Origin: Lujinxingia vulgaris
Lineage (GTDB): Bacteria; Myxococcota_A; Bradymonadia; Bradymonadales; Bradymonadaceae
Reading direction: 5' to 3'
Assembly: GCA_040393065.1 (NCBI GenBank)
Contig: JBEBUW010000012.1
Coordinates: 932 to 64,931, forward strand
Length of the DNA: 64,000 nt
Part shown: piece by piece, positions 704-45,414 of the stretch
Numbering within the stretch: the stretch's first letter is position 1
Layout of the letters: the number at the start of each line of letters is the position of its first letter
Made by a program: the position numbers and the translations under genes
Notes under the pieces: model-generated
Told to the model about the DNA's origin: nothing
What the model saw: the letters and a program-made list of their open reading frames with translations, nothing else
The model's database searches: none

Positions 704-761
704 GCTCGTACCTACTCCGAAAATGCCAGCATTGACTTGCTTTTTCCCGCGTTAATTCTCC

Positions 762-790: not shown

Positions 791-845
791 ACGGCGCGCA
801 AGAAATCCCGGCCTTACACGGATATTCTTTGATCACGAGGCAGCA

Positions 846-1334: not shown

Positions 1335-1361
1335 TTCCTCCAGGTACCCTGCTCTTTCTGA

Positions 1362-1411
1362 AAGCCGCATCTTCACCCCGCACGGATGAAGACGCGGCTT
1401 TCACTGTTTTT
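1362..1411 (+). terminator. rho-independent terminator
   Basis: Hairpin AAGCCGCATCTTCA-loop-TGAAGACGCGGCTT followed by a T-rich run (cactgttttt). Confidence 0.6.
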
Positions 1412-1545
1412 AACCAAAATCTTCCCCTGCCCCGGAAATACCCCTGGACACTGCACCGTTAACGTTTATCGTCTAAACAACCTGGCGCAATCCCAACTTC
1501 CCAGTTTTCTGCCTACTTTTTTACTTGCATCCCAGAGTGACCGTC

Positions 1546-2046
1546 ATGAGTAATCCGCGCAATTCCAACGCTCAAGGCAAGCCCGCCCCGGCCATCAAGT
1601 CGATCACAAAAAATCGCAAAGCGTACCATAACTACTTCGTCGACGAAGAATTCGAAGCCGGCATGATGCTGCTTGGCAGTGAAGTCAAAAGCCTACGTGA
1701 AGCCAAAGTTCAGCTCACCGACGCCTACGCCCGCTTCCAGGGCAACGAACTCTTCCTGGTCAATGCCCACATCAATCCCTACTCTCACGGCACCCACGAA
1801 AACCACGAGCCCGAACGCATGCGAAAACTCCTCATGCACCGCCGCGAGCTCAACAAACTCAAAAACAAAGTCGACCAATCCGGCTACACACTCATCCCGC
1901 TCGCGCTGTACTTCAAAGGCAGCAACGTCAAATGCCTGATCGGACTGTGCCGCGGTAAAAAACTCTTCGACAAACGCGAAGTCAGCCGCAAACGAGAAGC
2001 CGCACGCGATATCGCACGCGCTCATGCCGATGCTCGAAGGAAATAA
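1546..2046 (+). CDS. smpB: SsrA-binding protein SmpB
   Basis: KNRKAYHNYFV..EAG..L.GSEVKSLR, NAHINPY, RMRKLLMHRRELNKL and GYTLIPL.LYF are typical SmpB. ATG at 1546 preferred over the TTG at 1525. tmRNA gene lies directly downstream. Confidence 0.93.
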   Translation: MSNPRNSNAQGKPAPAIKSITKNRKAYHNYFVDEEFEAGMMLLGSEVKSLREAKVQLTDAYARFQGNELFLVNAHINPYSHGTHENHEPERMRKLLMHRRELNKLKNKVDQSGYTLIPLALYFKGSNVKCLIGLCRGKKLFDKREVSRKREAARDIARAHADARRK

Positions 2047-2072
2047 TTTCTCGCACTCTCTCGTTGTATCAC

Positions 2073-2100
2073 TTGACTATCCTGCAGAAATGTTCATAGT
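2073..2100 (+). promoter_or_regulatory. candidate promoter for ssrA precursor
   Basis: TTGACT (2073-2078), 16-nt spacer, CATAGT (2095-2100), about 70 nt upstream of the mature tmRNA 5' end. Would imply a processed precursor. Confidence 0.3.
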
Positions 2101-2171
2101 TCCTGCAGACTTCACAACCTCACTGAACGGAGATTGAGAAGTTAGTCAGTTGTTCGTTCCACACCCTTTTC

Positions 2172-2562
2172 GGGGGCGCAATGGCTTCGACGTGGGCATG
2201 GAAGCGGATGTGGCGTGCCGGAGGTTCTCGTGACTCCGTAATAACCATAGAGAAATGTTATAATTGCCAACGATAACGTTGAGGTAGCTCTCGCTGCGTA
2301 AGTAGCAAAGAGCACCAGCTGGTTCCCAAGGGAACCCCGTCTTGGTTAGCCTTGCCTGTGGGCTCTCCCGGACGTCACTTAGCAGGCTAGGCCAAAGGGA
2401 CTTCGTTCTTCGACCTGCGGCCGAAATTTAGAAGCGCACTCTCCAATCGTGGCTTTGTCCATTGGCAGCGAGGAAGGGAGTTAAAACTCTAATTATGGAC
2501 TACGCACGTAGAAGCGTTCAGCGGAAGGTTTGCGGACGCGGGTTCGACTCCCGCCGCCTCCA
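2172..2562 (+). ncRNA. ssrA: tmRNA (transfer-messenger RNA)
   Basis: 5' GGGGGCG..GGCTTCGACG pairs with 3' CGCCTCC, including a G3:U70-type wobble. T-arm GGGTTCGACTCCC. Conserved GGACTACGCACGTAGA. Internal tag ORF 2266..2301 (GCC AAC GAT AAC GTT GAG GTA GCT CTC GCT GCG TAA) encodes ANDNVEVALAA. Discriminator A at 2562, CCA not encoded (followed by TCA). Confidence 0.93.
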
Positions 2563-2569
2563 TCAAAAA

Positions 2570-2610
2570 CGCCCCGGTTCCCTAAAAAGAACCGGGGCGT
2601 TTTCTTTTCT
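2570..2610 (+). terminator. rho-independent terminator of ssrA
   Basis: GCCCCGGTTC-loop-GAACCGGGGC hairpin followed by GTTTTCTTTTCT. Confidence 0.8.
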
Positions 2611-4923: not shown

Positions 4924-4991
4924 ATCTTCGTAAGCCTCGTGCACCAACCTTCCCCCACACGCCTCTCTAAAACTCACATCCCCCTCCCCCC

Positions 4992-5033
4992 ACAAACAAA
5001 AACCCCGGCAACCTCTCTACGAGATTGCCGGGG
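4992..5033 (-). terminator. rho-independent terminator (member of the CCGGCAA..TTGCCGG hairpin family)
   Basis: CCCCGGCAACCTCTC-TAC-GAGATTGCCGGGG. On the minus strand it is followed by a T tract (GGGGTTTTTGTTTGT), downstream of gene 5095..6798(-). Confidence 0.6.
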
Positions 5034-5094
5034 CCAGACTTCAATCAAACCACCCGACACCCCAAAAAATCAGCGCCAGGCAAACACATCTGTT

Positions 5095-9203: not shown

Positions 9204-9215
9204 CTCCCCCAAAAC

Positions 9216-9253
9216 CCCAAAGCCCCGGCAACCTCTCCACAAGATTGCCGGGG
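9216..9253 (+). terminator. long hairpin (CCGGCAA..TTGCCGG family), possible terminator
   Basis: CCCCGGCAACCTCTC-CAC-AAGATTGCCGGGG directly after the stop of 8676..9203. No clear T tract on the + strand. Confidence 0.4.
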
Positions 9254-9401
9254 CCATTCAAGCCGCGCCGTCCCGAAATTCACGCCACACCCCCGAACCC
9301 CGCATCCCCCCCACTCCCTCAGACCAACTTTGTACTGGCCAGCCCCTCCCCTTTACAGTACTTTACAAGCCAGCACACAAACCAGAACCGGCGGAGGAAA
9401 A

Positions 9402-14740: not shown

Positions 14741-14799
14741 TCCCCTACCAACGATCACTGCACACTTGTGATCCATCGACCCCCCTCCATCCCATCCTC

Positions 14800-15011
14800 C
14801 ATCGCTCGCCGCGCCTCTGAGTCGCGCTGCGAGCGACCCACCATCGCCTCACTGCGCCATAAAGTCTCACCACAAGCGACCCACCATCGCTCGCAACGCC
14901 ACTCAGTCGCGCCGCAAGCGACTCACCATCGCCCAACTGCGCCATAAAGTCTCACCACCAGCGACCCATCATCGCTCACCACGCCACTCAGCCACGCGGC
15001 GAGCGACCTCC
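14800..15011. repeat. intergenic tandem repeat, 85-bp period (alternating 42/43-bp sub-units A-B-A-B-A)
   Basis: Units start at 14800, 14842, 14885, 14927 and 14970, each beginning CATCGC. A units carry an inverted repeat TCGCTCGC...GCGAGCGA. B units contain CTGCGCCATAAAGTCTCACCAC. Confidence 0.85.
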
Positions 15012-15156
15012 CATCGCGTGCACCACGCCTCATCCCTCCACCCTGGTCAGGAAACAGCACTTTACGCCCGTACATGCGCACGCAATACTCGACCGTCACG
15101 CTTGTTGAAGCCAAACAACGCGGTGCACCGACCTCTCTATAGAACAGGACTTCTTC

Positions 15157-16107: not shown

Positions 16108-16269
16108 CCGTACCGCCTGGCTCTACGTCACCACGCCTCATTGTAAGCCTTCTCCGACCTCACCATACAATTCGCATATTTAGGACTGCTACCCTCTATC
16201 GAACCATGCTATGGTCCCGGCATCATGCCGTGGCTCGGCAAACCGAGACGTAAAATGGGAGTGGAGCCG

Positions 16270-18663
16270 ATGAAGAAAAAGCAGTTCTCTGAGCGCGATA
16301 TCTGTACGAAGTTCATCACACCTGCCTTAGAACGAGCAGGTTGGGATATCGGCACACAGATTCGCGAAGAGTTTTCGCTCACCAATGGGCGCATCATCGT
16401 TCGTGGCAAAATGCACACCCGCGCAAAGAACAAGCGCGCTGATTATGTGCTGTTCCACAAAGCCAACATCCCCATCGCCATCATTGAAGCCAAAGACAAC
16501 AACCACTCCCTTGGCGACGGCATGCAACAAGGCCTGGGTTACGCCGAGATGCTGCAAGTTCCCTTCGTATTCAGCAGCAACGGCGACGGCTTTTTGTTCC
16601 ACAACAAAATCGCCACCGACGGTATCCTGGAGCGTGAACTGTCACTGGATGAGTTCCCCAGCCCTGAAACCCTCTGGCAGATGTGGGCCGAGCATCGCGG
16701 CCTGACTGAGCAACAAAGCGAGCTTGTCACACAAGATTATTACAGTGATGGCAGCAATAAAACGCCGCGCTATTACCAACTCCTGGCAATCAACAAAACC
16801 GTTGAAGCCGTGGCTCGCGGTCAAGACCGCATCTTGCTCGTCATGGCGACTGGCACAGGCAAAACCTACACTGCGTTTCAAATCATCTGGCGACTCTGGA
16901 AGGCCAAAGCTAAGAAACGCATTCTGTTTTTGGCCGATCGCAACATCCTCGTCGACCAGACCATGACCAACGACTTCAAGCCGTTTGGTGCGACGATGAC
17001 CAAAATCACGAAACGGCAAATCAACAAATCCTTTGAGGTTTACCTGTCTCTTTACCAGGCAGTCACCGGCAACGAGGAAGAGCGCAATATCTACAAGCAG
17101 TTCAGCCCGGACTTTTTCGACCTCATCGTGATCGACGAATGTCACCGGGGCAGCGCTGCCGAAGACTCTGCCTGGCGCGAAATCCTCGAATACTTTTCGT
17201 CCGCCACCCAGATTGGTCTGACCGCCACTCCCAAAGAAACCAAAGACGTCTCCAATATCGATTATTTCGGCGCGCCTATTTACACGTATTCCTTACGTCA
17301 GGGGATCGATGATGGATTTCTCGCACCGTACAAAGTCGTACGCATCGACCTCGACAAAGACCTGACCGGCTGGCGTCCCGACAAAGGAATGGTCGACAAA
17401 TACGGTGAGGAAATCGAAGACCGCATCTACAACCAGCGCGATTTCGACAAAACCCTTGTGCTCGAAAAGCGCACCGAACTGGTCGCCAAAAAGATCAGTG
17501 ATTTCTTAAAGCAAACCAATCGCTTCGACAAAACCATCGTCTTTTGCGACAACATCGACCACGCCGAACGCATGCGGCAGGCACTGGTCAATGAAAACGC
17601 CGACCTCGTGGCCCAGAACCACAAATACGTCATGCGCATTACCGGCGATAACGAAGAAGGAAAGGCTGAGCTGGATAACTTCATCTTTCCAGAAAGCACA
17701 TACCCGGTCATCGCAACCACCTCCAAATTGATGAGCACCGGAGTCGACGCACAGACTTGCAAACTGATCGTGCTCGATCAACGCATCCAGTCCATGACCG
17801 AATTCAAACAGATCATCGGGCGCGGCACCCGAATCAACGAAGATTACGACAAGTTCTACTTCACCATCATGGACTTCAAAAAGGCCACGGAGCTTTTTGC
17901 CGACCCTGATTTTGACGGAGAACCTGAGCAAATTTACGTGCCACAACCTGGCGATCCACTGGTCCCACCCGATGAGCCCGATGAATCCATCATCGACGGC
18001 GACTTCGATCTACCCGGTGGTTTCGATGAAGATTTCACGGGTGACTTTGAAGATGACCTTGGAGGTGACTTCGAAGGAGGTTCCGACGAAACCGGCTCCC
18101 GCGTACGACGTTATGTCGTAGCCAACGTCGAAGTCCGCGTCGCCGCCGAACGCGTCCAATACTTCGATGCCGATGGCAAGCTGATTACTGAATCGCTCAA
18201 GGACTACACACGTAAAGCTCTCGCCAAAGAATTCCGCTCACTCGATGAATTCCTTGTCCGCTGGAGCAGCGCTGACAAAAAACAAGCTGTTATCGACGCT
18301 CTCAGGGAAGAAGGCATCTTCTTCGAAGCACTCGCCGAAGAAATCGGCCGAGGACTAGATCCCTTCGATTTGATATGTCACGTCGCCTGGGACCAACCGC
18401 CGCTCACCCGCAAAGAGCGCGCCGAACAGGTCAAAAAGCGCAATTACTTCGCCCGCTACGGCGAGCAAGCCCAGCGCGTGCTCACCGCCCTGCTCGACAA
18501 ATACGCTGACGAAGGCATAAGTCCCATCGAGGAAACACAGATCCTCACTATCGCGCCCTTCTCGCAACTCGGCACCCCGATAGAACTCATTCGCAGCTTT
18601 GGCGGATTGGACAAATACCAGCACGCCCTTCACGAACTTCAACAAGCGCTTTACAGCGCATAA
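16270..18663 (+). CDS. hsdR: type I restriction enzyme R subunit
   Basis: N-terminal [19 protein letters not shown] (HsdR_N). Walker [13 protein letters not shown]-like VIDECH. Motif [12 protein letters not shown]. EcoEI-R-like C-terminal domain. ATG 16270 preferred over the ORF-track start. Confidence 0.92.
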
Positions 18664-18690
18664 ATCTTTTCACAATCGGAACACGAAAAC

Positions 18691-20157
18691 ATGTCAATCG
18701 GTACACTTGTAAAGTCCATCCAGGACATCATGCGCAAAGACGTTGGTGTTGATGGCGACGCACAACGCATCAGCCAGATCGTCTGGCTCCTTTTCCTCAA
18801 AATCTTCGACGACAAAGAACAAGAATGGGAATTCACCGTTCCCAACTATCAATCTCCTATCCCAGATCATTTGCGCTGGAGTAACTGGGCCAAAGACGAT
18901 GAAGGCATCACCGGCGAGGAGCTGATTGATTTCGTAAATAACGAACTCTTTCCCGCTCTTAAGCAGCTCGCCACTGCCGCAGGTGTTTCACCGCACGGAA
19001 AGGTCGTCGGCTCAGTATTTGCCGATGCTTACAACTACATGAAATCCGGCACGCTACTTCGTCAGGTAGTCAACGCCATCGAAGCCGACGTGGATTTCAA
19101 TTCCTCCACCGACCGCCATCTCTTCAACGATATCTATGAAAAAATCCTCGCCGACCTCCAATCCGCAGGCAATGCCGGCGAGTATTATACGCCCCGCCCT
19201 GTGACGCAGTTCATGGTCGATATCCTCGACCCGCAGCTTGGCCAGACCATTCTCGATCCCGCTTGCGGCACTGGCGGCTTTCTCACTTGCGCGATCGACC
19301 ACCTCAAAAAACAAGTCAAAACACCTGACGACCTGCGAATCCTGCAATCCAATATTTATGGCGTCGAGAAAAAACCTCTGCCCCACATGCTCGCCGTCAC
19401 CAATATGATGCTTCACGGCATCGACGTGCCCACCAATATCCAGCACGACAACACTTTAAGCCGCCCGCTCCGCGACTACGGCCCCAAAGATCGCGTCGAT
19501 ATCGTCCTCACCAACCCACCCTTCGGCGGCCAGGAAGAAGACGGAATCGAAACCAACTTTCCCCGCAAATACCAGACTCGCGAAACCGCCGACCTCTTCA
19601 TGGCGATGATCATGCACCGCCTCAAACCCAATACCGGCAAGGCTGCAGTCGTCCTCCCCGACGGCTTCCTCTTTGGCGAAGGCACCAAGGCCACCCTCAA
19701 GAAAGAACTCCTCGAAGAGTTCAACCTCCACACCATCGTCCGCCTCCCCAAAGGCGTTTTCTCGCCCTACACCACCATCTCCACCAACATCCTTTTCTTC
19801 GAAAAAGGCGGCCCCACTCAGGACGTCTGGTTCTTCGAACACCCCTACCCACCCGGCTACAAGGCCTACTCCCGCACTCGCCCCCTCACCATCGGCGAGT
19901 TCGACCGCGAAAAGAAATGGTGGGGCGGACCGGAGCGCAGAGGCCGCAAAACCACCGAACATGCCTGGAAAATATCTGCCGAAGAAATCGTCGAGCGCGG
20001 CTACAACCTCGACTGCAAGAACCCACACGAAATCATCGTCGATCATGGCGACCCCGCCGCGCTCATTCAGGAATACCACGAAATCGCCCGCCAGCTCGCC
20101 GAAGCCCAGCAAGCCCTCAAAACCGAGCTGATGGCAGCCCTCGAGAGAACACCATGA
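18691..20157 (+). CDS. hsdM: type I R-M N6-adenine DNA methyltransferase M subunit
   Basis: AGEYYTPRPV, DPACGTGGFL (SAM binding), VLTNPPFGG catalytic motif. Confidence 0.93.
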   Translation: MSIGTLVKSIQDIMRKDVGVDGDAQRISQIVWLLFLKIFDDKEQEWEFTVPNYQSPIPDHLRWSNWAKDDEGITGEELIDFVNNELFPALKQLATAAGVSPHGKVVGSVFADAYNYMKSGTLLRQVVNAIEADVDFNSSTDRHLFNDIYEKILADLQSAGNAGEYYTPRPVTQFMVDILDPQLGQTILDPACGTGGFLTCAIDHLKKQVKTPDDLRILQSNIYGVEKKPLPHMLAVTNMMLHGIDVPTNIQHDNTLSRPLRDYGPKDRVDIVLTNPPFGGQEEDGIETNFPRKYQTRETADLFMAMIMHRLKPNTGKAAVVLPDGFLFGEGTKATLKKELLEEFNLHTIVRLPKGVFSPYTTISTNILFFEKGGPTQDVWFFEHPYPPGYKAYSRTRPLTIGEFDREKKWWGGPERRGRKTTEHAWKISAEEIVERGYNLDCKNPHEIIVDHGDPAALIQEYHEIARQLAEAQQALKTELMAALERTP

Positions 20158-21203
20158 GCGAAGATAATAAAAAGCTAATCCGCAATAGCACTGCCGAATT
20201 CCTGATCTTCACTGGTCAGGCCGGCGAACAAAGCATCGAAGCGCGTTATGAAGATCAAACAATCTGGCTTAGCCAGAAGTTGATGGCCACGCTATTTGAT
20301 GTAACCGTACCCACCATCAACGAGCACCTGAAGAACATCTTCGACTCCGATGAACTCAGTCGCGAGGCAACTATTCGGAATTTCCGAATAGTTCAAACCG
20401 AGGGGAACCGCGACGTCACCCGCAACGTAGAGTTCTATAATCTCGATGCGATTATCTCTCTCGGTTACCGCGTCAATTCGGTCCGAGCAACCCAATTCCG
20501 CCAATGGGCAACCCAAGTATTGAAAGAATTTGCCATCAAGGGATATGTGCTGGACAAAAAGCGCATGGAGAATGGCACCTTCCTTGATGAAAACTATTTC
20601 GAACAACTGCTTGCAGAAATTCGAGAAATACGCCTTAGCGAACGCCAGTTCTACCAGAAAATCACCGATATCTATGCGACCAGCGTGGATTATAACAAGT
20701 CAGCTCCTACGACGAAGGAATTCTTCGCAAAAGTGCAGAATAAATTACACTTTGCAATCCATGGACATACTGCCGCAGAACTGATTCACCAACGAGCTGA
20801 CAGCAGTCAATCACATATGGGGCTGACTTCATGGGCGAATGCACCCGACGGTAAAATACTAAAATCTGATGTGGCCATTGCCAAGAACTACCTGAACAAG
20901 GAAGAGCTGGAAGCGTTAGGTCGCATCGTCAACGCCTATCTCGATATTGCCGAAGATCGTGCGCTACGAAAAATCCCAACCACCATGGAAGACTGGGCCA
21001 AACGTCTGGATAATTTTCTCGAACTCACTGATCGCGATATCCTTAAAAATGCTGGCAAAATATCTGCAAAAATTGCGAAAGAACATGCCGAAGGCGAGTT
21101 CGAAAAATATCGCATCGTTCAAGATCGCCTCTTCGAAAGCGATTTCGACAAAGTAATCAAACAAATAGAATCCTCAGTTAAAGACAAAAAAGAAGATGAA
21201 TAA
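20154..21203 (+). CDS. rhuM: RhuM-family protein embedded in the R-M operon
   Basis: IRNSTAEFLIF, TIWLSQKLMATLFDVTVPTINEHLKNIF, YNLDAIISLGYRVNSVRATQFRQWATQVLKE. Start ATG overlaps the hsdM stop (ATGA at 20154-20157). Confidence 0.85.
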   Translation: MSEDNKKLIRNSTAEFLIFTGQAGEQSIEARYEDQTIWLSQKLMATLFDVTVPTINEHLKNIFDSDELSREATIRNFRIVQTEGNRDVTRNVEFYNLDAIISLGYRVNSVRATQFRQWATQVLKEFAIKGYVLDKKRMENGTFLDENYFEQLLAEIREIRLSERQFYQKITDIYATSVDYNKSAPTTKEFFAKVQNKLHFAIHGHTAAELIHQRADSSQSHMGLTSWANAPDGKILKSDVAIAKNYLNKEELEALGRIVNAYLDIAEDRALRKIPTTMEDWAKRLDNFLELTDRDILKNAGKISAKIAKEHAEGEFEKYRIVQDRLFESDFDKVIKQIESSVKDKKEDE

Positions 21204-22833
21204 CCAGACCGCCCAGCTCCTCGAACAACACTTCGACACCGCCTTCAGCGCCCCCGACGGCATCAAAAAACTCCGTGAGCTCATCCTCACCCTCGCCATG
21301 CAAGGCAAGCTCGTTCCTCAGGACCCTGACGATCCTCCCGCCAGCCAGTTGTTAAAAGAGATCGAGGCGGAGAAAAAACGCCTCGTGCAAGAAGGCACGA
21401 TCAAAAAGCCCAAGCCATTGCCAGCCATCAAGCCAGAAGAAGTGCCTTACGAAATACCAAAGAGTTGGGAGTGGGTGCGAATTGGAGCTGTCACAAATAT
21501 TTCTACTGGAAAGCTGAATGCAAATGCTGCAGTAGATGATGGCATGTATCCTTTTTTCACTTGCTCTAATACGCCGTCAGAGATCGATACTTACTCATAT
21601 AACACTGAAGCTGTCCTGCTCGCAGGAAATGGCGACTTCAACATAAAGTATTATCGAGGGAAGTTTGATGCTTATCAGCGAACATACATAATAGAGCCAA
21701 TAAAATCTGAATTAAAGCACACTTACTATGGTATTAAGAATTGTTTAGCCGAAATCACAAAAAGTCATAGAGGCTCGGCAATCCCATATTTAAGACTTGC
21801 TGATATAACTCACCCTCTTATACCCCTCCCACCTCTCCCCGAACAGCACCGCATCGTCACTAAAATTGACCAGCTCATGGCGCGCTGCGACGAACTCGAA
21901 AAACTACGCGACGAGTACGAACAAAAGCGCCGCAACGTCCACACCGCAGCCCTCAATCAATTGCTGGAAGCCCAAACAGACGACAGCTTCACCGACGCTT
22001 GGCATTTCATCACCCAACACTTCACCGAACTCTACTCCATCAAAGAAAACGTCGATGAGCTACGCAAAGCCATTCTCCAGCTTGCGGTGATGGGTAAGTT
22101 GGTGCCGCAGGATCCTGATGATCCGCCAGCCAGCCAGTTGTTGAAAGAGATCGAGGCGGAGAAAAGGCGCTTGGTTAAGGAAGGGGTGATCAAGAAGCCT
22201 AAGGCGTTGCCGAAGATTAAGGCGGAAGAAGTGCCTTACGAGATACCGGAGAGTTGGGAGTGGTGCCGCATTTGGGATATTGCCAAAGTAATAACATCTG
22301 GTTCGCGTGACTGGGCAAAATATTACTCGGAATCTGGTGCTGTTTTTGTGACTATGGGAAACTTATCACGCGGAAACTATCAGCTTCGCATGAATACTAT
22401 TCGTTATGTCAATCCACCTTCTGATGGCGAAGGGGCCAGAACTAGGCTAAAAGAAAATGACTTGCTAATATCAATTACAGGTGATGTAGGAAACCTTGGT
22501 TTAATTCCACCAGAATTCGGAGAGGCATATATTAATCAACATACATGTTTACTCCGATTCATGCCTCATTGTAGAAATCTGTATTTTCCAGAACTAATGA
22601 GAACTGCTTTAGTAAAACGTCAATTTGATGCTCCACAACGTGGTATAAAAAATAGCCTTAGATTAAGTGATGTTGGAGAAATACTAATTCCCCTCCCACC
22701 CCTGCCTGAACAACACCGCATCGTTGCCAAGATCGACCAGCTTATGGGGATGTGTGACGTGTTGGAAGAACAGATCGAGGCGGCGACTGTTAAAAAGACC
22801 AGGTTGTTGAGTGCGTTGGTGGCGGCCGTTTAA
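21196..22833 (+). CDS. hsdS: type I R-M specificity subunit
   Basis: Two TRDs separated by duplicated conserved regions (LVPQDPDDPPASQLLKEIEAEK.RLV.EG.IKKPK.LP.IK.EEVPYEIP.SWEW twice; PLPPLPEQHRIV.KIDQLM twice). Overlaps the rhuM end by 8 nt. Confidence 0.92.
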   Translation: MNNQTAQLLEQHFDTAFSAPDGIKKLRELILTLAMQGKLVPQDPDDPPASQLLKEIEAEKKRLVQEGTIKKPKPLPAIKPEEVPYEIPKSWEWVRIGAVTNISTGKLNANAAVDDGMYPFFTCSNTPSEIDTYSYNTEAVLLAGNGDFNIKYYRGKFDAYQRTYIIEPIKSELKHTYYGIKNCLAEITKSHRGSAIPYLRLADITHPLIPLPPLPEQHRIVTKIDQLMARCDELEKLRDEYEQKRRNVHTAALNQLLEAQTDDSFTDAWHFITQHFTELYSIKENVDELRKAILQLAVMGKLVPQDPDDPPASQLLKEIEAEKRRLVKEGVIKKPKALPKIKAEEVPYEIPESWEWCRIWDIAKVITSGSRDWAKYYSESGAVFVTMGNLSRGNYQLRMNTIRYVNPPSDGEGARTRLKENDLLISITGDVGNLGLIPPEFGEAYINQHTCLLRFMPHCRNLYFPELMRTALVKRQFDAPQRGIKNSLRLSDVGEILIPLPPLPEQHRIVAKIDQLMGMCDVLEEQIEAATVKKTRLLSALVAAV

Positions 22834-22842
22834 GGGTTAAGG

Positions 22843-22872
22843 AGTTCATGAGTTAAAGGCTCATTATGAACT
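22843..22872. terminator. possible bidirectional hairpin between convergent genes
   Basis: AGTTCATGAG-loop-CTCATTATGAACT imperfect hairpin between the hsdS stop (22833) and the stop of the minus-strand gene (22871). Confidence 0.3.
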
Positions 22873-24802
22873 ACTCATCAACGGTCTTGGCGATTGGTGC
22901 TTTTTCTGGATCGCTAGTGTCAGACATTTCAACGGCCTTTGTCACAGTCGGCTGTTCTGATACTATTTTGATCAGTTCTTTTATTTGAGCTTTAAGCTGT
23001 TTGATTTCTTCTTCATGAATATCTCGCTGAGGGGTGCCATTATGCATGGTAGAAAGAACTTCTGTCTGCCAGTTTTCATTGGCCTTACTACTTATATTTT
23101 CCATATATAGTCCAAATATGGTTACAACCAGACCAACGAACGCGAAAAGTGCTGTAACCACTATAGCTGAAACAGCAATGTTAATTTGTTTATTACTAGC
23201 TACTTCTGCATCCTCTGCTTGCGTTTTAAAATCTTCAACCATCTTTTCAGTATTGAGTGCTATGCTTTGCAACTTCTTAGCAGAGTGGCGAGTGTTTGCA
23301 TCAGAAATTTCTGCTTGACGCCTAGACTCCTCGACCATTTCTTTAGTACTTAATGCTACATTTTTTAAATAATTAGCAGATTCACGTGCGTCCTGATCTG
23401 CCTTCTGAGAACGCTCATCAAATCGGTCAAGCATCTCGGCAGCAGCTTCTGCTAAGTCTTTCAGAACGTGAGCTGATTCAGCTGTCATCTTACTTGTTAT
23501 CCGAGCTAAATCTAATTCTTCATTTCTGTCATGCGTAGCTTGTTCTGCTCGTTCATCAAACTGTTTAAGCACTTTGGCAACAGTATCTGCTAAATTTTGT
23601 AAAACAAGGGTTAATTCTGTTGTTCCCTTACTCGTTGTTCGAGCTAGCTCCAGCTCTTCCTGTCTCTCACGAGTTGTCTTTTCTTGAGCACGAGCAAGGG
23701 CGTCTATCCCATTAGTAACGTTTTTACGCATCTCATCTAATGAATCTAATGAGATGTCATCGTTTTCTAAGGAATAATCTATTTTGAAAGGATCTTGCAG
23801 CATATCATATCCACTTTTAAGATTCGGGGCACGATAAGTATTTGCAAGTGTTTGAGGCAAAAATTCAGAACTTGTCCATGTTTTCGTGATTTCTCCATAA
23901 TTCTTTAGTGTTTCATTAAGGGCGGAACTGCTCGATCGTATATAATCAAGAGCACTATGGCTTAATTGAGATGAATACTTGTCCATGTCCTCGAGAAGTT
24001 TTGTGTTTACCGCACTGTTAAAGCTACTATAAGGTTTGGATACATCATTAAGTTTAGCAATATCCTTTTGATGCTTTGCAAGGTAATCTATACCAAGCTG
24101 GTTAACGGAAAACTTCTGTGCTTCCTCAAGAGCCTTAGCATTTACCGCATTATTAAACTCATGCAGGTTTTTGTATGAGCCTTCTAACAGTGCGTTTCTT
24201 GCTGCTTTGGATAAATACTTCATATTAGAAGTTATTAACGCCATAGCCTCTTTTGTCACCATTGCATTATCCGTGGACATCTTTGCTACTATTTGATTTG
24301 TATCATTTTGAGCAGCCAGCATTGATGCCTGAATCTCCTTAATCTCCTCAGTATAAATTTCTAGTTGCTTTCTAAGTAACCGGTCTAAATAAGAAACCGC
24401 TGTTTCTTCCTCATCTCGTGGAAGCCTTGCTCTATTGTCGGCTCCTAAATGAGTATCTTCGAATTCATTTAACTGCGCATAGGCCTCTGCCAATAATTCT
24501 AAATCACCTTCAGAAAGTTGGGAAATATATTCCTGCGCCAATGGCTCTCGTTTTCCTCCAGGTTCCGATACTGCAGATAAACTTGCAATCCGAGGCAAAA
24601 GCTCCTTAAATCTTTCATATGAATCTTCAATGGTAAGATCATATAGAAAATCAACATCTTTTGCCCTTAGTCCATAAAGATGAATTACCCCAACTGACGT
24701 TTCGATCGCCTTCGCTGCCTTCTGAACCAGACTCACCAACATATCCTTGGTGATTGTTGGACTCCCATTTTTATTTGAAGAATCATTTTCACTACTCATC
24801 AC
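22871..24802 (-). CDS. hypothetical coiled-coil protein with one C-terminal TM helix (AT-rich cassette, gene 2)
   Basis: GGGGAG RBS before the ATG. 643 aa, predominantly helical. Four tandem helical repeats (residues about 378-535), then TM INIAVSAIVVTALFAFVGLVVTIFGLY. No catalytic motif recognised. Confidence 0.75.
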   Translation of the reverse strand: MMSSENDSSNKNGSPTITKDMLVSLVQKAAKAIETSVGVIHLYGLRAKDVDFLYDLTIEDSYERFKELLPRIASLSAVSEPGGKREPLAQEYISQLSEGDLELLAEAYAQLNEFEDTHLGADNRARLPRDEEETAVSYLDRLLRKQLEIYTEEIKEIQASMLAAQNDTNQIVAKMSTDNAMVTKEAMALITSNMKYLSKAARNALLEGSYKNLHEFNNAVNAKALEEAQKFSVNQLGIDYLAKHQKDIAKLNDVSKPYSSFNSAVNTKLLEDMDKYSSQLSHSALDYIRSSSSALNETLKNYGEITKTWTSSEFLPQTLANTYRAPNLKSGYDMLQDPFKIDYSLENDDISLDSLDEMRKNVTNGIDALARAQEKTTRERQEELELARTTSKGTTELTLVLQNLADTVAKVLKQFDERAEQATHDRNEELDLARITSKMTAESAHVLKDLAEAAAEMLDRFDERSQKADQDARESANYLKNVALSTKEMVEESRRQAEISDANTRHSAKKLQSIALNTEKMVEDFKTQAEDAEVASNKQINIAVSAIVVTALFAFVGLVVTIFGLYMENISSKANENWQTEVLSTMHNGTPQRDIHEEEIKQLKAQIKELIKIVSEQPTVTKAVEMSDTSDPEKAPIAKTVDE

Positions 24803-24907
24803 TTACTCCCCTTACATCTTTTTACATTTCAAAGAAAAACCATTTGCCCCTAAAGGACGTTTACAACACCAATAAAAGTGTTTGTATCGTTTTATAGACA
24901 TTTCCAT

Positions 24908-25873
24908 CTATTTCATGCTTATTACCGGCTTATCGGCCGCCTTATATTTCGATAAAACTTCTGCCTTCATCGTGTGGAATTCTTCATCAGTGATATAGCC
25001 TTTTTCATGCATATCAATCAGCTCTTTAAGCTGCATCGTGCTTTCCCCTACGTCACTGCTTTTTGCGCTCGATGCCTCAACACTATTATCCTTACCACTC
25101 AACTTTTGTGCAGAAAAAATCAAAGACCTTACAACTCCATACCATTCACGAACTAACCTCAAGGTCGGTTTCACGGCCTCACTATCTTGAGGAACTGGCT
25201 TATCCAACTCAAGAAACGTGAGTTCATACGACGAGTTCTCTGTCCCAGTCACAATCATATGAAGACTCAACTTCTTCATAACAGAAGTGGAAGTTTGTGA
25301 TGCACTCGATGCGCCAACTATTGCTCCTGCACCTCCAAACAACAATCCACCAACAACTGCACGCTCTACTCCATCGTTTTGGGTGACCTCCATAACTGCA
25401 TCGTCATTCAAAACAATTTTCACCTCAACGATTTGCTCGGAATTAATTATTACTGGAGGATAATATAGAGGTTCACTAGCAGACAATGGGTCTACACCAG
25501 CTTTACCCTGTATCAAAATCAGTTGACTTTTCTTCCTATCAAACAGCAATGCAAATGAATACCCTGATCCAATTAGCTCATCCTTTTCTTTAATTACACA
25601 TTTATTTTTAACCGATACAATAACTTCTTCTAGCTGTCTTTTGCAAATCGCCATTCGATGAGCATTATTTTGCTTTGCCGGTCCATTAGCTGATTGCAAC
25701 CAAAATACAACCCCACCTAGAACAACTACTAAAAGAATTGCACCTCCAACATGTCCTTCAGCATCACCACCGTCTCCTAAGGCAATACAAGGGACAGTGA
25801 TGAGCGCTGCAAGAAAAAACAACCATGCACACCCAAGACAACCTTCATTATCTTCAAGCTTTTCTTGATACAT
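24908..25873 (-). CDS. hypothetical membrane protein with C-terminal SHOCT domain (AT-rich cassette, gene 1)
   Basis: Two N-terminal TM helices, glycine zipper AVVGGLLFGGAGAIVGA, C-terminal LKELIDMHEKGYITDEEFHTMKAEVLSKY (SHOCT). The third codon ATG (25873) has better GAGG spacing than 25879. Confidence 0.7.
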   Translation of the reverse strand: MYQEKLEDNEGCLGCAWLFFLAALITVPCIALGDGGDAEGHVGGAILLVVVLGGVVFWLQSANGPAKQNNAHRMAICKRQLEEVIVSVKNKCVIKEKDELIGSGYSFALLFDRKKSQLILIQGKAGVDPLSASEPLYYPPVIINSEQIVEVKIVLNDDAVMEVTQNDGVERAVVGGLLFGGAGAIVGASSASQTSTSVMKKLSLHMIVTGTENSSYELTFLELDKPVPQDSEAVKPTLRLVREWYGVVRSLIFSAQKLSGKDNSVEASSAKSSDVGESTMQLKELIDMHEKGYITDEEFHTMKAEVLSKYKAADKPVISMK

Positions 25874-26169
25874 TACCATCTACCTCACAAACAAATCTGG
25901 CTAAAATCAATTCTATTAGTTTATTATCCCTAGACAGGCTACTCTACACTATCACTCAGTTTCATTTACCTGCTATCTCCCACTACACGCTGGATTTTCA
26001 TTAAGTGTTGTTACCTAACGCGTAGAGCTAGCACGGATTTTTAGGATTGTCTCTTGGGAACATTTGTAACATCCATCTGCACATCCCCGTCCACACTTCA
26101 CCCCCACCCCACACAATGCTACTCTCCCCATGTGCATAGAAATGGATTGCAACGTATGGAGGTCTGGTG

Positions 26170-28635
26170 ATGAATGGTAAAAATTGGTGGCGGCTGTTGG
26201 TGGTTTTAGCGGGAATCTGGGCGGCGTTGTTTTCGCTGCCGGTGGAGGCGCAGGCGGCGGATACGTGGACGACGGTGCATCCGGGGATGCGGCGGCTTTT
26301 GCGGACGACGTCGGAGCCGAATCGCATCCATGCGCTGGAGATCGACCTGTGTCGGGCGGGCGTGAGTGTGCGGGCGACGAAGAGCAATGAGCGGAAGCAG
26401 AGGCCGTCGGCGTTCGGGCGGGCGGTGGGGGCGCAGGCCGCGATCAACGGGGATTTCTTTAGTTATAGCGATTACAGCCCGACGGGGCTTGCGATCGGCG
26501 AGGGGGCGCACTGGGCGGGGACGTCGGATAATAACTCCAAGGCGTATATGGCGTTTGGGAAGAACCGGGTGGATTTCTCGGGGCTTCTGGAGACGCGCAA
26601 TCAGGAGAAGTGGATGCGGTCGGTGGTTTCGGGGCGCTCGGTGCTGGTCGAAAACGGCGTGGCGCTCGCCCAGAACTCGGGGCCGGGGATCATGGCGCAC
26701 TGCTCGGACAGGCATCCGCGTTCGATGATGGGGTTGTCGAAAGATCGGAAGACACTGTATCTGGCGGTGGTCGATGGCCGGCAGCCGGGGGTGAGCCGCG
26801 GGATGTTGTGTACGGAAATGGCGGCGCTGATGAAAGGCCTGGGGGCGTATTCGGCGGTGGAGTTGGACGGCGGTGGCTCGAGCGCGTTGTGGGTCGATGG
26901 CGTGGGCGTGTTGAACCGGCCGTCGGACGGCTCGGAGCGCGTGGTGGCCAATCATCTGGCGATCATTGCAAAAGGCAGTGCGCAGCCGGGTTCTTGCGAC
27001 CGTTCGTTTGAGGAATCTTCGCTGCAAACGGCCGCGCACAATGCCAGCACGACAACCGACATCGACGGCGACGGGCTGGCGGACGCCTGCTCGCTCGGGC
27101 CGGATGGCATCGAATGTTATCTGGCGGGCTCGACGCCGCCGTTTTCCAAACGCGTCAACGGGCCGGCGCTGCCGCTTGACCGGGGTTGGAGCAATCCGGC
27201 GAACTATTCGACGATTCGGTATGGCGACATCAACGGTGACGGCAAGGCCGACATCTGCGCGCGCTACAACACGGGGGTGCGCTGCTTTTTGTCGACGGGC
27301 TCCGGATTTTCGGCCGGCTTTGACGGGCCGACGCTCTCCAACGAAGGCGGCTGGAACGCCACGCCGGCTTATTATTCGACGCTCAAAATGGCGGACGTAA
27401 ACGGTGATGGCAAAGACGACTTGTGTGCGCGGGGCTCGGCCGGTTTTTACTGTTATATGAGCCAGGGCAATGCTTTTTCGGGCCGCACTGCCGCGCTGGC
27501 CGCGCTGAACGACGCGAACGGTTTTCATGAGGCCGAGTACTACGGCACGATTCGGATGGGTGATATCAACGGCGACGGCAAAGCCGACGTCTGCGCGCGT
27601 ACCAAAGACGGCATGCGCTGCTGGCTCTCGACCGGCAACGGCTTTGGCACGGAAGTCACCGGACCAGGCTGGAGTGATGCAGGCAACTGGGACCGGCTGC
27701 CGTACTGGTCGACGATTCGGCTGGCGGATGTGGACGGCGACGGCCGCGCGGATCTGTGCGCACGCGCAGGCGCCGGATTTCGCTGCCACCTCTCGCGCGG
27801 CACAAGCTTTGGTGGCGCTGTCTCGGCCGAAATTCTGACCGACGCCTCGGGCTGGGACGACCACGACAACTTTTCGACCATCCAGCTTGCCGACGTAAAC
27901 GGCGACGGCAAACTCGACGTCTGCGCGCGCGCCAACGCCCGCGTGACCTGCTATCCGTGGAATGGCAACGGCTGGGGCTCGGGCATCGCGAGCCTGGCGC
28001 TCGATGACGCGGGCGACTGGAACCAGATCCATTACTATTCGACGATTCGCTACGCCGACGTAAACGGCGACGGCAAAGCCGACCTGTGCGCGCGCGGATT
28101 TAGTCGGTTTGATTGCACGACCAACGCAACAAGCACGGCTGCCGCCAACGTCCTGGGGCCGGCATGGAGCAACGCCCGGGGTTGGACCAGCCCGGCGCAG
28201 TACGCCACGATTCAGATCGTCGATCCGCCGGCGCGGGCGAGTGAACCGGAACCCGAAGATCCGGAAGATCCTGAAGATCCGGAAGATCCAGGACCCGAAG
28301 AGCCAGAAGATCCCACAAACCCTGAGCCGCAAGACGCCGGCGGTTACGACGACATCGATGAATTCGATGACCTGGATGCTCATGATTCCCCGGATGCACA
28401 CCTGGAGGACGCCAGCGGCGCGGACTTCGTCGACACTATGGACGAAGATTTCGACGACCCACAAAACCCGGGCCATCACCATACCACTTCCATGACCGGA
28501 AGCTGCGGCTGCGCCCACATCACGGCGCCGGCCTCACCGCCCCCCGCCGGCGTTTTGTTTGGACTCGCCGGTCTCGCGGCCGTGGTCGCCCTCCGGCGCC
28601 AAGCCTCCACACGAAGGCCGGCCCGCAAACACTGA
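26170..28635 (+). CDS. secreted phosphodiester glycosidase (DUF2233/NAGPA-like) with 7 FG-GAP repeats and MYXO-CTERM-like tail
   Basis: GGAGG RBS. Signal peptide. AINGDFF, RSMMGLSKDRKTLYLAVVDGRQ, ELDGGGSS. Seven D(I/V)(N/D)GDGK.D.CAR repeats. Acidic linker. C-terminal GSCGC...LFGLAGLAAVVALRRQ. Confidence 0.8.
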   Translation: MNGKNWWRLLVVLAGIWAALFSLPVEAQAADTWTTVHPGMRRLLRTTSEPNRIHALEIDLCRAGVSVRATKSNERKQRPSAFGRAVGAQAAINGDFFSYSDYSPTGLAIGEGAHWAGTSDNNSKAYMAFGKNRVDFSGLLETRNQEKWMRSVVSGRSVLVENGVALAQNSGPGIMAHCSDRHPRSMMGLSKDRKTLYLAVVDGRQPGVSRGMLCTEMAALMKGLGAYSAVELDGGGSSALWVDGVGVLNRPSDGSERVVANHLAIIAKGSAQPGSCDRSFEESSLQTAAHNASTTTDIDGDGLADACSLGPDGIECYLAGSTPPFSKRVNGPALPLDRGWSNPANYSTIRYGDINGDGKADICARYNTGVRCFLSTGSGFSAGFDGPTLSNEGGWNATPAYYSTLKMADVNGDGKDDLCARGSAGFYCYMSQGNAFSGRTAALAALNDANGFHEAEYYGTIRMGDINGDGKADVCARTKDGMRCWLSTGNGFGTEVTGPGWSDAGNWDRLPYWSTIRLADVDGDGRADLCARAGAGFRCHLSRGTSFGGAVSAEILTDASGWDDHDNFSTIQLADVNGDGKLDVCARANARVTCYPWNGNGWGSGIASLALDDAGDWNQIHYYSTIRYADVNGDGKADLCARGFSRFDCTTNATSTAAANVLGPAWSNARGWTSPAQYATIQIVDPPARASEPEPEDPEDPEDPEDPGPEEPEDPTNPEPQDAGGYDDIDEFDDLDAHDSPDAHLEDASGADFVDTMDEDFDDPQNPGHHHTTSMTGSCGCAHITAPASPPPAGVLFGLAGLAAVVALRRQASTRRPARKH

Positions 28636-43233: not shown

Positions 43234-45414
43234 TCAGTCCTTTCCAAACAGCTTGGAAATAAACCCTTTGCGCTTCTTCTCCACGATGATTTCAGGCACA
43301 GCAAACGGAGAATTTACAACCGGCGGCAGCGGCAAATCATCATCGCCCAGCAATTCATCAAGAACATCGCGCTGCCTGTCTTCCTCTGAAACCGCGCTTT
43401 TAGCTTCCAACTCTTTTTGTGCATTCGCCAAAAGTGCCGACAAACTATCAGGTTCGTCATCAACTTCAGGCGAAGATGGCACATTCAACCCATGACTGAG
43501 CGATAAACCCTCACCCAGCGAAAGGCCACCATCGTCCTCAGCACCGCTGTCTTCCAGAGCGCCTAGCAATGACAAAAGCTCCGAAGGATCTGCTTCCTGC
43601 TTCTCCTCAACAGCATCTGCCACAGGCGCAGGCTCAGGTTCTGAATCAGGCACTGGCGGAAGTGGCGGAACCTGGTCAACAATCTCCTCAGAAACGTCTT
43701 CATCCATGATAAATGAAAACGAACCCTCGGAAGCACTCGATTCCACAAGCCCAATAGCTTCTTCGCTTTCGACTTCTTCTACGGATTCAGGTGCAGAAGG
43801 ATCCGCCAGCAGACTCTCTAGCTCCAAAGCTTCTGGTGCAGCTTCAGCGGCTTCCTCCACGATAAACCCATCAGCAGAAACCGGTTCGCTCTCCTCGCCA
43901 AAAAGCAGAGCCGCCAGGCTGTCCTCCGATGATTCTTCAACCTCAGCATCCGAAGACGGAACTTCCAGGGGCGCTGCAGGCGGCATCGACACGGGTTGCA
44001 ACAAGGCAGGTTCGTCCAGCATCCCTGCATCTTCCATCGCCTCGATTTCGGCCGCAATCTCATCCAAAGCGCCGTGCGCTTCCCCGACCTCCGACTTTTC
44101 TTCTTCTTCCTCTTCTGCCTGAGAAGTCGCAAACTCTACAGCGTTCTCTGCACTTTCATCTTCGCCGTCTGAATCACCGAAAGCACCACCGAAGGCACTG
44201 CCAAACACGTCATCAAACATCGAATCGACGTCGTCTTCGCTGCCAAGCGCAAATTGCTCAAAGTCACGATCCACCGCTTCATCAGCGCTGCCATCAAACG
44301 AATGGATCTGTAAACCGCCACGCGTTTCCCGAACGACGCGCGGAGCAATCGTGTCGTCCTCGACAACATCAGCTGCATCTTCTTCGCCAGCAATTTTCAA
44401 CTGTTCTTCAGCAACGACCTCTTGCGAAGCATCCTCAGCTGCTGCATCCGCAGAAACTTCCGACAAAGAGAACGCAGGAAAATCCATCAAATCCTGCTCG
44501 TCTTGCTCCTCGCCTCCATCAAAAACCAGGGAATCCCCGGCCACGGGCTCTTCCGCGTCAAATTCAGGCTCAGAAAGCTCCAATTCAAAATGGAAATCAA
44601 CATCAGCCGATGCGTCTTCTTTTGAAAAAACTTGCTCGGACTCCGGCGCTTCAAAATCATCCGCATCAAAACCAAACAGATCGAGGCTCAACTCACCCGA
44701 CCCGGCCGTACCGATTTCCTCGGACTCCGGCCCCCAATCCTGCGAAGGGTGAGCCGTCATCGATTGGCTTTCAGCAAGAGCGTCATCATGAATATCTTCA
44801 TGAATATCTTCGTCTTCAACAACCGACTCCGCAGGCTTCTCGCCATAAGTCGAGGCACCAAGCCCTGCCAATTCTGACGCCTGCAAACGCCCTGTCCGAT
44901 CGGTAAACAAAGCACCCAGATCTTCATCGCTATCTTCGATTCCTGCTCTGACACTGGAATGCGCCAGATCTGCCAGCGAATAACTCCCGGTGGTTGCTTC
45001 CTGCACCCCGGATTCTATGGCGTCAGAGTTCGAAAAATTGGCTGCATCGTTTTCATCCGACAAAAGATCGACGCCCAACTTCTCAACTTCCTTCAGCGCG
45101 ACAATGCGATCGATCAAAACTTTGGAATCCTGACTAAGTTTTGTGAACTTAACGAGCATTCCAATCGGACTATCGGCATCTTCTGATTCCAGCCCGCGGA
45201 TCTGACGCACAATACCTTCGCCCAACAGAGCCGTTGCGCCATCACCCAGCACAAACTGAAAGCGAACCGTTGTGCCTACAGGCTTTAATTTTGCAGGCAT
45301 CATCGGGATGAACATGCCACCGGCAGTTACATAGCGCGAATAGCCATCAATAAATTCATCGACCGACTCGTAACGAAGGCGAGCACGAATTGCGGAGAAA
45401 TTTGGTTCCGTCAC
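43234..45414 (-). CDS. PilZ (TIGR02266-type) domain protein with about 600-aa highly acidic low-complexity region
   Basis: N terminus RARLRYESVDEFIDGYSRYVTAGGMFIPM...PVGTTVRFQFVL..G....GEGIVRQI. The remainder is D/E/S/A-rich. GTG start. Confidence 0.7.
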   Translation of the reverse strand: MTEPNFSAIRARLRYESVDEFIDGYSRYVTAGGMFIPMMPAKLKPVGTTVRFQFVLGDGATALLGEGIVRQIRGLESEDADSPIGMLVKFTKLSQDSKVLIDRIVALKEVEKLGVDLLSDENDAANFSNSDAIESGVQEATTGSYSLADLAHSSVRAGIEDSDEDLGALFTDRTGRLQASELAGLGASTYGEKPAESVVEDEDIHEDIHDDALAESQSMTAHPSQDWGPESEEIGTAGSGELSLDLFGFDADDFEAPESEQVFSKEDASADVDFHFELELSEPEFDAEEPVAGDSLVFDGGEEQDEQDLMDFPAFSLSEVSADAAAEDASQEVVAEEQLKIAGEEDAADVVEDDTIAPRVVRETRGGLQIHSFDGSADEAVDRDFEQFALGSEDDVDSMFDDVFGSAFGGAFGDSDGEDESAENAVEFATSQAEEEEEEKSEVGEAHGALDEIAAEIEAMEDAGMLDEPALLQPVSMPPAAPLEVPSSDAEVEESSEDSLAALLFGEESEPVSADGFIVEEAAEAAPEALELESLLADPSAPESVEEVESEEAIGLVESSASEGSFSFIMDEDVSEEIVDQVPPLPPVPDSEPEPAPVADAVEEKQEADPSELLSLLGALEDSGAEDDGGLSLGEGLSLSHGLNVPSSPEVDDEPDSLSALLANAQKELEAKSAVSEEDRQRDVLDELLGDDDLPLPPVVNSPFAVPEIIVEKKRKGFISKLFGKD

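Follow-up and report, generated by a model that had tools for sequence, protein, structure and literature searches.

Two AT-rich membrane-protein genes beside a type I restriction-modification operon of Lujinxingia vulgaris, one of them from a candidate family of restriction-associated backup effectors

We have analysed a stretch of 64,000 nt from Lujinxingia vulgaris (GenBank assembly GCA_040393065.1, contig JBEBUW010000012.1, positions 932 to 64,931), called the window below and numbered from its first letter, focusing on two adjacent minus-strand genes, the upstream gene A and the downstream gene B, which lie beside a type I restriction-modification (R-M) operon (Table 1). In an original prediction, made from the letters and their open reading frames (ORFs), this block was described as two co-oriented minus-strand ORFs separated by a 105-nt spacer and was proposed to be a membrane-anchored sensor-effector pair of a defence system without a name. 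The ORF calls agreed with this layout. The GGGGAG ribosome-binding site (RBS) noticed ahead of gene B was found again, 6 nt upstream of the ATG at 24799, and this ATG is also the start of the 642-aa database protein P0001; likewise, the Met3 start of gene A is the start of the 321-aa database protein P0002 and of the ortholog in a sister genome (locus L002). The abutment on hsdS was confirmed as well, the tail-to-tail gap from the hsdS stop (22833) to the gene B stop codon (22871) being 37 nt. Regarding composition, the A+B block is the most AT-rich part of the neighbourhood (GC 0.39-0.41 versus 0.47-0.64 in the flanks), just as it had been described: GC and third-position GC (GC3) are 0.413 and 0.34 in gene A and 0.394 and 0.31 in gene B, to be compared with a GC of 0.47 in hsdS, 0.53-0.55 in hsdR/M, 0.64 in the neighbouring NAGPA gene and 0.541 in the entire window. 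The foreign composition suspected for both genes was recovered, as was the defence-rich region. A weak stem and a T-run are present in the A-B spacer at 24858-24846; terminator-like sites in the spacer did not exceed the shuffle expectation, promoter and terminator consensus matches were at chance level, and the RNA fold z-score was -1.0.

Table 1. Coordinates of the two genes, their parts and the adjacent type I R-M operon in the window
Feature	Position	Strand	Remarks
Gene A	24908..25879	-	323 aa from ATG 25879; probable start Met3 at 25873, giving 321 aa
Gene A, N-terminal transmembrane (TM) helix pair	25682..25849	-	residues 11-38 and 40-66; Kyte-Doolittle windows >=2.28; helices in the AlphaFold2 (AF2) model
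Gene A, PH-like beta-rich core	25100..25582	-	residues ~100-260, interrupted by the glycine zipper; AF2 with multiple sequence alignment
Gene A, glycine zipper AVVGGLLFGGAGAIVGA	25301..25372	-	residues ~170-193
Gene A, SHOCT domain	24953..25033	-	residues 283-309; PF09851, E=1.3e-6, 28.4 bits versus cutoff 27
A-B spacer	24803..24907	-	105 nt; gene B RBS GGGGAG at the 3' end
Gene B	22871..24802	-	643 aa from GTG; probable start ATG 24799, giving 642 aa
Gene B, N-terminal family domain	24320..24799	-	residues 2-161; N-domain hidden Markov model (HMM) E=3.1e-34; proposed sensor/adaptor
Gene B, lineage-specific helical expansion	23693..24319	-	residues ~162-370; holds DYIRSSSSALNETL
Gene B, tandem duplication of helical unit	23405..23680	-	residues 375-420 and 421-466; ARERAEELE..RLTG.MTAESA-type
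Gene B, weaker 32-aa repeat pair	23213..23398	-	residues 469-498 and 501-530; score 71 versus shuffle maximum 83, marginal
Gene B, TM helix, conserved post-TM motif and helical tail	22874..23191	-	TM 538-571, tail 572-643
Type I R-M operon	16225..22833	+	Pfam and PADLOC; converges on gene B
hsdR	16225-18663	+	
hsdM	18691-20157	+	
RhuM-family gene (PADLOC PDC-S05)	about 20154-21203	+	embedded between hsdM and hsdS
hsdS	21196-22833	+	

Gene A belongs to the Pfam family PF27000 (PH_gly_zipper), a label which the identical database protein P0002 and all of the 16 relatives carry, often together with SHOCT. PF27000 is newer than the local Pfam copy and the assignment is a precomputed annotation, given without a local hmmscan score; phrog_888 matches residues 109-310 with E=9e-18. 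All features which had been read from the letters, namely the two TM helices, the beta-rich middle, the glycine zipper and the SHOCT tail, were recognized, and the protein is not new to the databases, since it belongs to the existing family PF27000 and carries SHOCT. In the AF2 model beta strands extend across residues 101-230, and the predicted local distance difference test score (pLDDT) is ~85-94 over residues 70-165 and 200-260; in the glycine zipper, which has beta strands on both sides, it is below 50. The relatives have about 17-30% identity to gene A, with the exception of an 80% ortholog, and the only invariant block in the 17 sequences is the zipper, where 11 columns (A174, G177, F181-G182, A184-A190) are fixed. 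Gene A thus shares with PF27000, PF09851 and PHROG 888 an invariant zipper within a beta-rich PH-like core and a SHOCT tail. The termini vary in the family: the N-terminus consists of two TM helices, as in gene A, or of a DUF4428 zinc ribbon, and the C-terminus is SHOCT, repeat-like or zinc-ribbon; it is by its 2-TM N-terminus that gene A differs from the relatives with a zinc ribbon or other termini.

Structure comparison of the gene A model in BFVD gave matches to phage proteins annotated as "Short C-terminal domain" and "Bacterial PH domain" (E from 1.3e-8 to 2.3e-3, the latter value belonging to a "Bacterial PH domain protein"), and Foldseek against PDB gave nothing at E<1e-3. By tblastn no match of gene A was found in 50,697 phage records or in 72,556 plasmid records, and in a literature text search "PH_gly_zipper" was not found, while "glycine zipper" and "SHOCT" occurred together only in unrelated work. 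The relatives of gene A occur in mobile contexts. One directly follows a cI-like repressor in the immunity region of a prophage (L045); another has integrase, antirepressor and ParB genes as neighbours (L003), a third is flanked by an integrase and a resolvase (L046), and four IMG/VR contigs carry relatives as well. Gene A is best read as separate cargo, which would come from a family of prophage and mobile-element contexts, judging from the few loci examined. Superinfection-exclusion or abortive-infection genes often occupy positions in lysogeny modules, and for the gene A family this may serve as a lead only.

The product of gene B is of a different kind. An exhaustive phmmer search over 1.84 billion cluster representatives with a threshold of E<1e-3 returned 98 distant relatives, 41 of them below 1e-10. 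Among the matches listed from a word-indexed search of 5.8 billion proteins there was only gene B itself (coiled-coil words dominated the candidates), and likewise only the query was among the matches listed with the family alignment A2. The family members are mostly 340-400 aa long (typically ~360) and consist of an N-terminal domain, a conserved helical unit, one TM helix and a short tail. The N-terminal domain (N-domain) has ~160 aa with the consensus elements TS.G.(I/L)YL(Y/F)PLR.SD, R(I)R.FLP.IASLS and LSD.EVE.LAEAY; a short conserved helix, IFDQVRKSS..LG, a strongly conserved helical unit, ARERAEELEM.RLTG.MTAESAK.L..LAEAA....DERD, and a post-TM motif, Y.QD..NN.S.D.WQ, followed by a helical tail, were also recognized.

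Gene B retains all four family modules and the nearly invariant residues (alignment A2). In its numbering the invariant positions are L42, E133 and L295, and T35, G38, D49, R66, R85, Y108 and R141 are close to invariant. The family HMM A3, built from eight typical members with gene B excluded, matched it with E=4.9e-78. In BLASTP against the typical member P0019 three collinear segments were aligned, the N-domain with 7e-24 and the TM/tail region with 8e-16. In length gene B lies outside the ~340-400 aa of the family, since it reaches 642-643 aa through a ~130-aa insertion and duplicated units. The insertion stands after the N-domain and is lacking in the typical ~360-aa members (alignment A2); the expansion contains a weak internal repeat (216-258 / 261-302), and its element DYIRSSSSALNETL corresponds to the family motif IFDQVRKSS..LG. 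Of the four tandem repeats claimed by the original prediction, one 46-aa duplication stood clearly (Smith-Waterman score 112 versus 50 +/- 8 for shuffles), and the repeat HMM matched twice, at 371-422 and 422-470; the second, 32-aa pair was only marginal. The single C-terminal TM helix was found where expected, with a hydropathy of 2.77, and the TM/C-tail HMM covers residues 537-602. Because the N-terminus is hydrophilic and lacks a signal peptide, and because basic residues are more numerous ahead of the TM helix than behind it, a topology of N-in, C-out, similar to tail-anchored proteins, is suggested for the family.

Gene B and the typical members match no Pfam, NCBIfam, PADLOC or PHROG model, and PADLOC-DB v2.0.0 gave 0 families for gene A, gene B and a typical member (L006, 375 aa). 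Both proteins are free of catalytic Pfam domains and of PADLOC matches, in accordance with the earlier statement that neither carries a catalytic motif. The related claim that they match no named system stood in respect of PADLOC, which was blank for both. Gene B, with its 98 distant relatives, is not strictly novel in sequence. The PDB sequence search with the family profile A3 was empty, and tblastn found neither gene B in the 50,697 phage records nor the typical member P0019 in the 72,556 plasmid records. Gene B is best read, from its sequence, as a diverged and expanded member of an unnamed and undescribed family which appears to be associated with restriction systems.

The families of gene A and gene B were not found together. 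The gene A family HMM and the zipper motif had no match in 44 gene B-family loci (542 kb), and the gene B-family HMMs had none in 9 gene A-family loci; as a positive control, the zipper motif recovered 9/9 gene A-family loci. The closest relative of gene A, P0003 with 80% identity in the sister genome locus L002, is encoded next to the same NAGPA/FG-GAP gene (86% DNA identity) and has no gene B after it; instead, the next gene is a convergent one which encodes a BrxL-like ATPase fused to MIT_C. The DNA homology with the sister genome ends ~46 nt past the gene A stop (about 24861), which is ~59 nt upstream of the gene B start, and therefore the RBS of gene B lies in the non-homologous segment. 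With zero co-occurrence, an ortholog lacking gene B and a break of homology inside the spacer, a conserved sensor-effector pair, in the sense of the original prediction, is not supported: the co-occurrence of homologs, which it had named as a check, was never seen in the 44 + 9 loci. We consider the block, at about even confidence and jointly with the effector role of gene B discussed below, to consist of two membrane-protein genes which were acquired horizontally and inherited independently of each other, and which lie where a variable defence region ends. The practical message for the window is that two separate genes should be annotated and not one new two-gene system.

In the sister genome the gene for the BrxL-like ATPase with MIT_C (phospholipase D-like) (L002 4043-5047, minus strand) stands where the window has gene B and the hsd operon, which points to a variable slot for defence genes beside a conserved NAGPA-gene A pair.

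The genomic position of the gene B family was mapped using the peptide pattern [VAT]RLTG[KQ]MTA with one genome per GTDB species, which led to 30 loci, 29 of them informative; the counts are raw, and flanking ORFs were clustered and their representatives annotated with Pfam and PADLOC. In 25/29 informative loci the family gene stands on the same strand behind a restriction-type operon. The upstream system was BREX type 3 in 12 loci, in the order PglXI-BrxHII-PglZ-BrxA-[family gene] with BrxA immediately upstream, and Hma (helicase, DUF1156 methylase, DUF499 ATPase) in 8, where the family gene came directly after HmaC in 5 and 1-3 small genes intervened in 3. Type III Mod-Res preceded it in 4 loci, and HEC-07 with type I hsdR in 1. 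Among the remaining loci a SMODS gene (nucleotidyltransferase domain of CBASS systems) was seen two genes upstream in one (L016 6414-7400), with no restriction system; the gene was apparently stand-alone with LysR genes in 2, the context could not be assigned in 1, and it was cut by the contig end in 1. From stop to match, most gaps measured -4 to +88 nt, and in several of the Hma and type III loci the stop codon overlapped the start codon. The downstream neighbour was usually convergent; therefore the family gene is typically terminal in its operon.

Additional cases were a family member 31 nt behind a GmrSD gene (L040), a type III operon in a JGI metagenome (L055) and Hma operons on IMG/VR contigs, where prophage genes lie beyond the family gene; a metagenome scan with the N-domain alignment gave only one locus. 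As to the proposed check on homologs near R-M or other defence genes, the raw counts showed such an association for the gene B family, and the link is stronger than could have been known from the letters. Type I R-M adjacency is kept by gene B itself, despite its convergent orientation. The family genes are only ~3.6 GC points below their own operons; the strong AT bias of gene B belongs to this locus and not to the family.

At the end of two Hma operons (L011 7195-7980, L015 7165-7950) a gene of 261 aa was observed between the Hma core genes and the gene B relative. It matches PADLOC Aga_Helical-REase and PDC-S35, and thus the operon end carries stacked accessory genes.

The N-domain is joined to different C-terminal parts. 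In 67/98 relatives it is combined with a TM helix. P0031 (641 aa; L035 211-2136) has a gene B-type N-domain and a Swt1-like HEPN domain (Pfam HEPN_Swt1, 1.4e-8) without a TM helix, and its match to PADLOC PDC-M34B runs via the HEPN part only; this variant lies in an element with an integrase, and its contigs start ~210 nt upstream of the gene. In P0061 (500 aa; L037 8001-9503) the N-domain is followed by pP_pnuc_1 (7e-29), a pPIWI-associated predicted nuclease. One N-terminal module joined to alternative toxic-type C-termini is the usual signature of sensor-plus-effector proteins in conflict systems, and the swap of TM, HEPN and pP_pnuc_1 tails marks the N-domain as a candidate infection sensor. 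The idea that the N-domain is a homotypic adaptor shared with partner proteins was rejected, as there was no secondary N-domain match in the 44 loci.

A possible course of events can be drawn from these features. The N-domain might keep watch on the restriction machinery or respond to a phage cue, for example an anti-restriction protein, and the helical unit, which is duplicated in gene B, could mediate oligomerisation. The TM helix and the tail would then damage the inner membrane, leading to abortive infection as a second line behind restriction, while in the rare relatives a HEPN RNase or a pP_pnuc_1 nuclease would take the place of the TM module. Transcription of gene B might start at a promoter of its own or reach it as read-through from gene A. 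That the gene B family is a restriction-associated backup cell-suicide effector, with gene A standing apart, is the interpretation which we prefer and to which we give roughly an even chance. A further-reaching proposal is more tentative: the N-domain could be a widespread unnamed restriction-guard module, whose gene would close the operons of at least five kinds of modification-dependent restriction systems (BREX-3, Hma/BR, type III, type I and GmrSD). The module would sense inhibited or overwhelmed restriction and fire interchangeable suicide effectors, gene B being a duplicated stand-alone offshoot of it. This we regard as possible but doubtful.

Several observations weigh against the backup-effector interpretation. 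Toxicity, membrane damage and the trigger are inferred for every member of the family from what was computed on the sequences. The 30 loci come mostly from Burkholderiales and other Betaproteobacteria, and the association is shown for one subfamily only; the genes in L010, L024 and L028 are stand-alone or LysR-adjacent, and the pP_pnuc_1 variant is stand-alone too (L037-39). The partner systems are very unlike one another, which makes a common physical interface harder to assume. Gene B itself departs, in the window, from the usual position of the family: it converges on hsdS and follows gene A. Its identity to the relatives is 27-38% over the matched regions and it is nearly twice as long, so that its function may have drifted, and the single-sequence AF2 model, almost all helix, has low confidence (pLDDT 40.6), so that the coiled coil named in the original prediction is a putative one.

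Four other explanations have been weighed. The gene B family might be a membrane tether, scaffold or regulator of restriction complexes, for example at the sites of phage DNA entry, and not a toxin. The terminal, translationally coupled position in operons with restriction enzymes would suit such a role, as would the single TM anchor with a large cytoplasmic part and the absence of a toxin-like domain in the TM members; nevertheless, HEPN and pP_pnuc_1 swaps on the same N-domain fit an effector slot better than an anchor, a docking surface shared by BREX-3/Hma, type III, type I and GmrSD is not to be expected, and some members are stand-alone, so that we hold this role to be unlikely. It could also be imagined that both genes are mobile cargo outside defence, such as prophage remnants or genes of envelope, superinfection-exclusion or addiction functions, and that the link to restriction is hitch-hiking: both are AT-rich and of foreign composition, gene A relatives occur in prophages and integrative elements, some gene B relatives are on IMG/VR contigs beside prophage genes, and a tmRNA gene lies 20 kb off. 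Hitch-hiking does not predict, however, that in 25/29 loci from different species the gene follows restriction genes on the same strand with a short gap or overlap; moreover, the IMG/VR contigs with a visible upstream region again show Hma, and tblastn remained blank for phage records (gene A, gene B) and plasmid records (P0019, gene A). This explanation appears quite unlikely to us.

The idea that A and B cooperate at least in this genome, as a newly assembled two-gene membrane sensor-effector module of abortive infection, is improbable in our opinion. Their common orientation, the 105-nt spacer with no convincing terminator between them, the similarly low GC and GC3 and the fact that both are membrane proteins in a defence-rich region would fit it, but it has to face the zero co-occurrence in 44 B-family and 9 A-family loci, the 80% ortholog of A without B, the homology break inside the spacer upstream of the B RBS and the difference in recurrent context between the two families. 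Least probable of all, gene B could be a decaying or neofunctionalised relic, internally duplicated after the loss of its partner operon, from which the family function has gone. Its length of 642 aa versus ~360, the ~130-aa insertion, the extra repeats, the atypical orientation to the R-M operon and the lack of a close relative among the matches listed from 5.8 billion proteins could be explained in this way, yet the frame is intact, the RBS is good, the nearly invariant residues are all kept and the TM helix with the post-TM motif is conserved.

Further features were recorded in the window. In the Logan gene call the RhuM gene has an overlap of 4 nt with the hsdM stop and of 8 nt with the hsdS start, and it is a textbook example of an "embedded" accessory gene of a type I R-M operon. 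The GIY-YIG/DUF4357 gene (PDC-S14) and the GmrSD-like gene which had been placed in the neighbourhood were both confirmed. Just upstream of the former, at 14796-15050, an 85-bp unit is present in three tandem direct copies (87% and 61% identity to the first). A 53-nt repeat with 85% identity, containing a GC-rich hairpin (CCCCGGCAA...TTGCCGGGG), was found at 4984-5036 and 9204-9256; it resembles a REP or terminator element, and one copy is upstream of the GmrSD-like gene. The large, secreted-type protein with NAGPA (phosphodiester glycosidase) and FG-GAP repeats is encoded at 26167-28635 (plus strand) in the window and at 124-2577 (minus strand) in L002. Its gene contains six ~165-nt DNA repeats, and the C-terminus of the ortholog, with a Cys-containing motif, a hydrophobic helix and an RRKRAR tail, resembles a C-terminal sorting signal.

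A tmRNA gene was identified at 2172-2562 (plus strand) with the tag peptide ANDNVEVALAA, 20 kb from the A+B block. tmRNA genes are classic integration sites of islands. A tmRNA-anchored island was considered and rejected here: the tmRNA 3' end has no copy near 26 kb or bounding the AT-rich block, and a 16-nt exact match to it at 44511-44526, inside a 726-aa ORF, is probably due to chance. No integrase was detected by Pfam among the ORFs at 2.7-14.7 kb. Over the window (1-64000) the plus strand is C-rich and A-rich nearly throughout, with a GC skew of about -0.1 to -0.46 and a mostly positive AT skew; the exception is the region of roughly 22-33 kb, where genes change strand.

Among the described systems the genomic logic of the gene B family can be compared first with Ronin, a decoy-immunity system of E. 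coli ECOR55 (Silas et al., bioRxiv 10.1101/2023.04.06.535777). Its RonA, a 61-aa TM protein tied to hsdMS or BREX, kills on its own, is kept masked by HsdMS and becomes active when Ocr, ArdA or Aop1 releases it. In both cases a single-TM membrane protein is linked to type I R-M-like or BREX loci. The two differ, in a comparison made by description and not by sequence, in size (61 aa for RonA versus ~360, and 642 here, with a large N-domain) and in context, as the operons ahead of the gene B family are BREX-3, Hma, type III and type I and not hsdMS-only decoys. Gene B, with its 642 aa and its large N-domain, is not a very small single-TM protein of the Ronin kind.

PrrC/RloC proteins have an ABC-ATPase-like N-domain and a C-terminal anticodon nuclease and stand in a type I R-M locus, and PARIS (AriA/AriB) combines an OLD-ABC ATPase with TOPRIM. 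Gene B is without these domains in Pfam, NCBIfam and PADLOC: the three model collections gave it neither the ATPase nor the nuclease which would place it with PrrC/RloC, and a TM helix is predicted as its effector. The backup logic is the same, since PrrC, guarded by EcoprrI, and PARIS are triggered upon restriction inhibition (bioRxiv 10.1101/2023.04.06.535777; PMC12839542). Those relatives of gene B in which the N-domain is fused to HEPN or pP_pnuc_1 would then be nuclease versions of this idea.

According to the BREX/BR survey (Rakesh & Krishnan, NAR 2026, PMC12839542), BREX-3 is homologous to the DUF499/DUF1156 (Hma) systems, and both draw in "auxiliary and backup" effectors; this homology makes an accessory gene common to BREX-3 and Hma understandable. 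When extra genes are embedded in Hma, BREX or type I R-M loci, they are often defence genes (Payne et al., bioRxiv 10.1101/2024.01.29.577857). Such embedded and auxiliary genes recur within BREX, Hma and type I R-M operons or at their ends and have been interpreted as additional layers of defence; the gene B family resembles them in its position. The BrxA-adjacent family gene of the 12 genomes is outside the six published BREX-3 core components (BrxF, BrxC/PglY, PglXI, BrxHII, PglZ, BrxA); no BREX genes were found among the window ORFs scanned, and gene B is not part of a BREX type 3 core. The difference from the catalogued BREX/BR effectors is that those are nucleases (HNH, PD-(D/E)xK, TOPRIM/OLD, HEPN, PIN, Schlafen), and a transmembrane component has 0 occurrences in the text of the BREX/BR survey (PMC12839542).

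If the backup-effector interpretation is true, the family would form a non-nuclease, membrane-acting accessory class common to BREX-3, Hma, type III and type I systems, for which the catalogues list nucleases only, and it would bear on how restriction-type systems are guarded against anti-restriction. Within the known kinds gene B is best filed with the backup effectors attached to restriction systems, as an outlier of an undescribed family.

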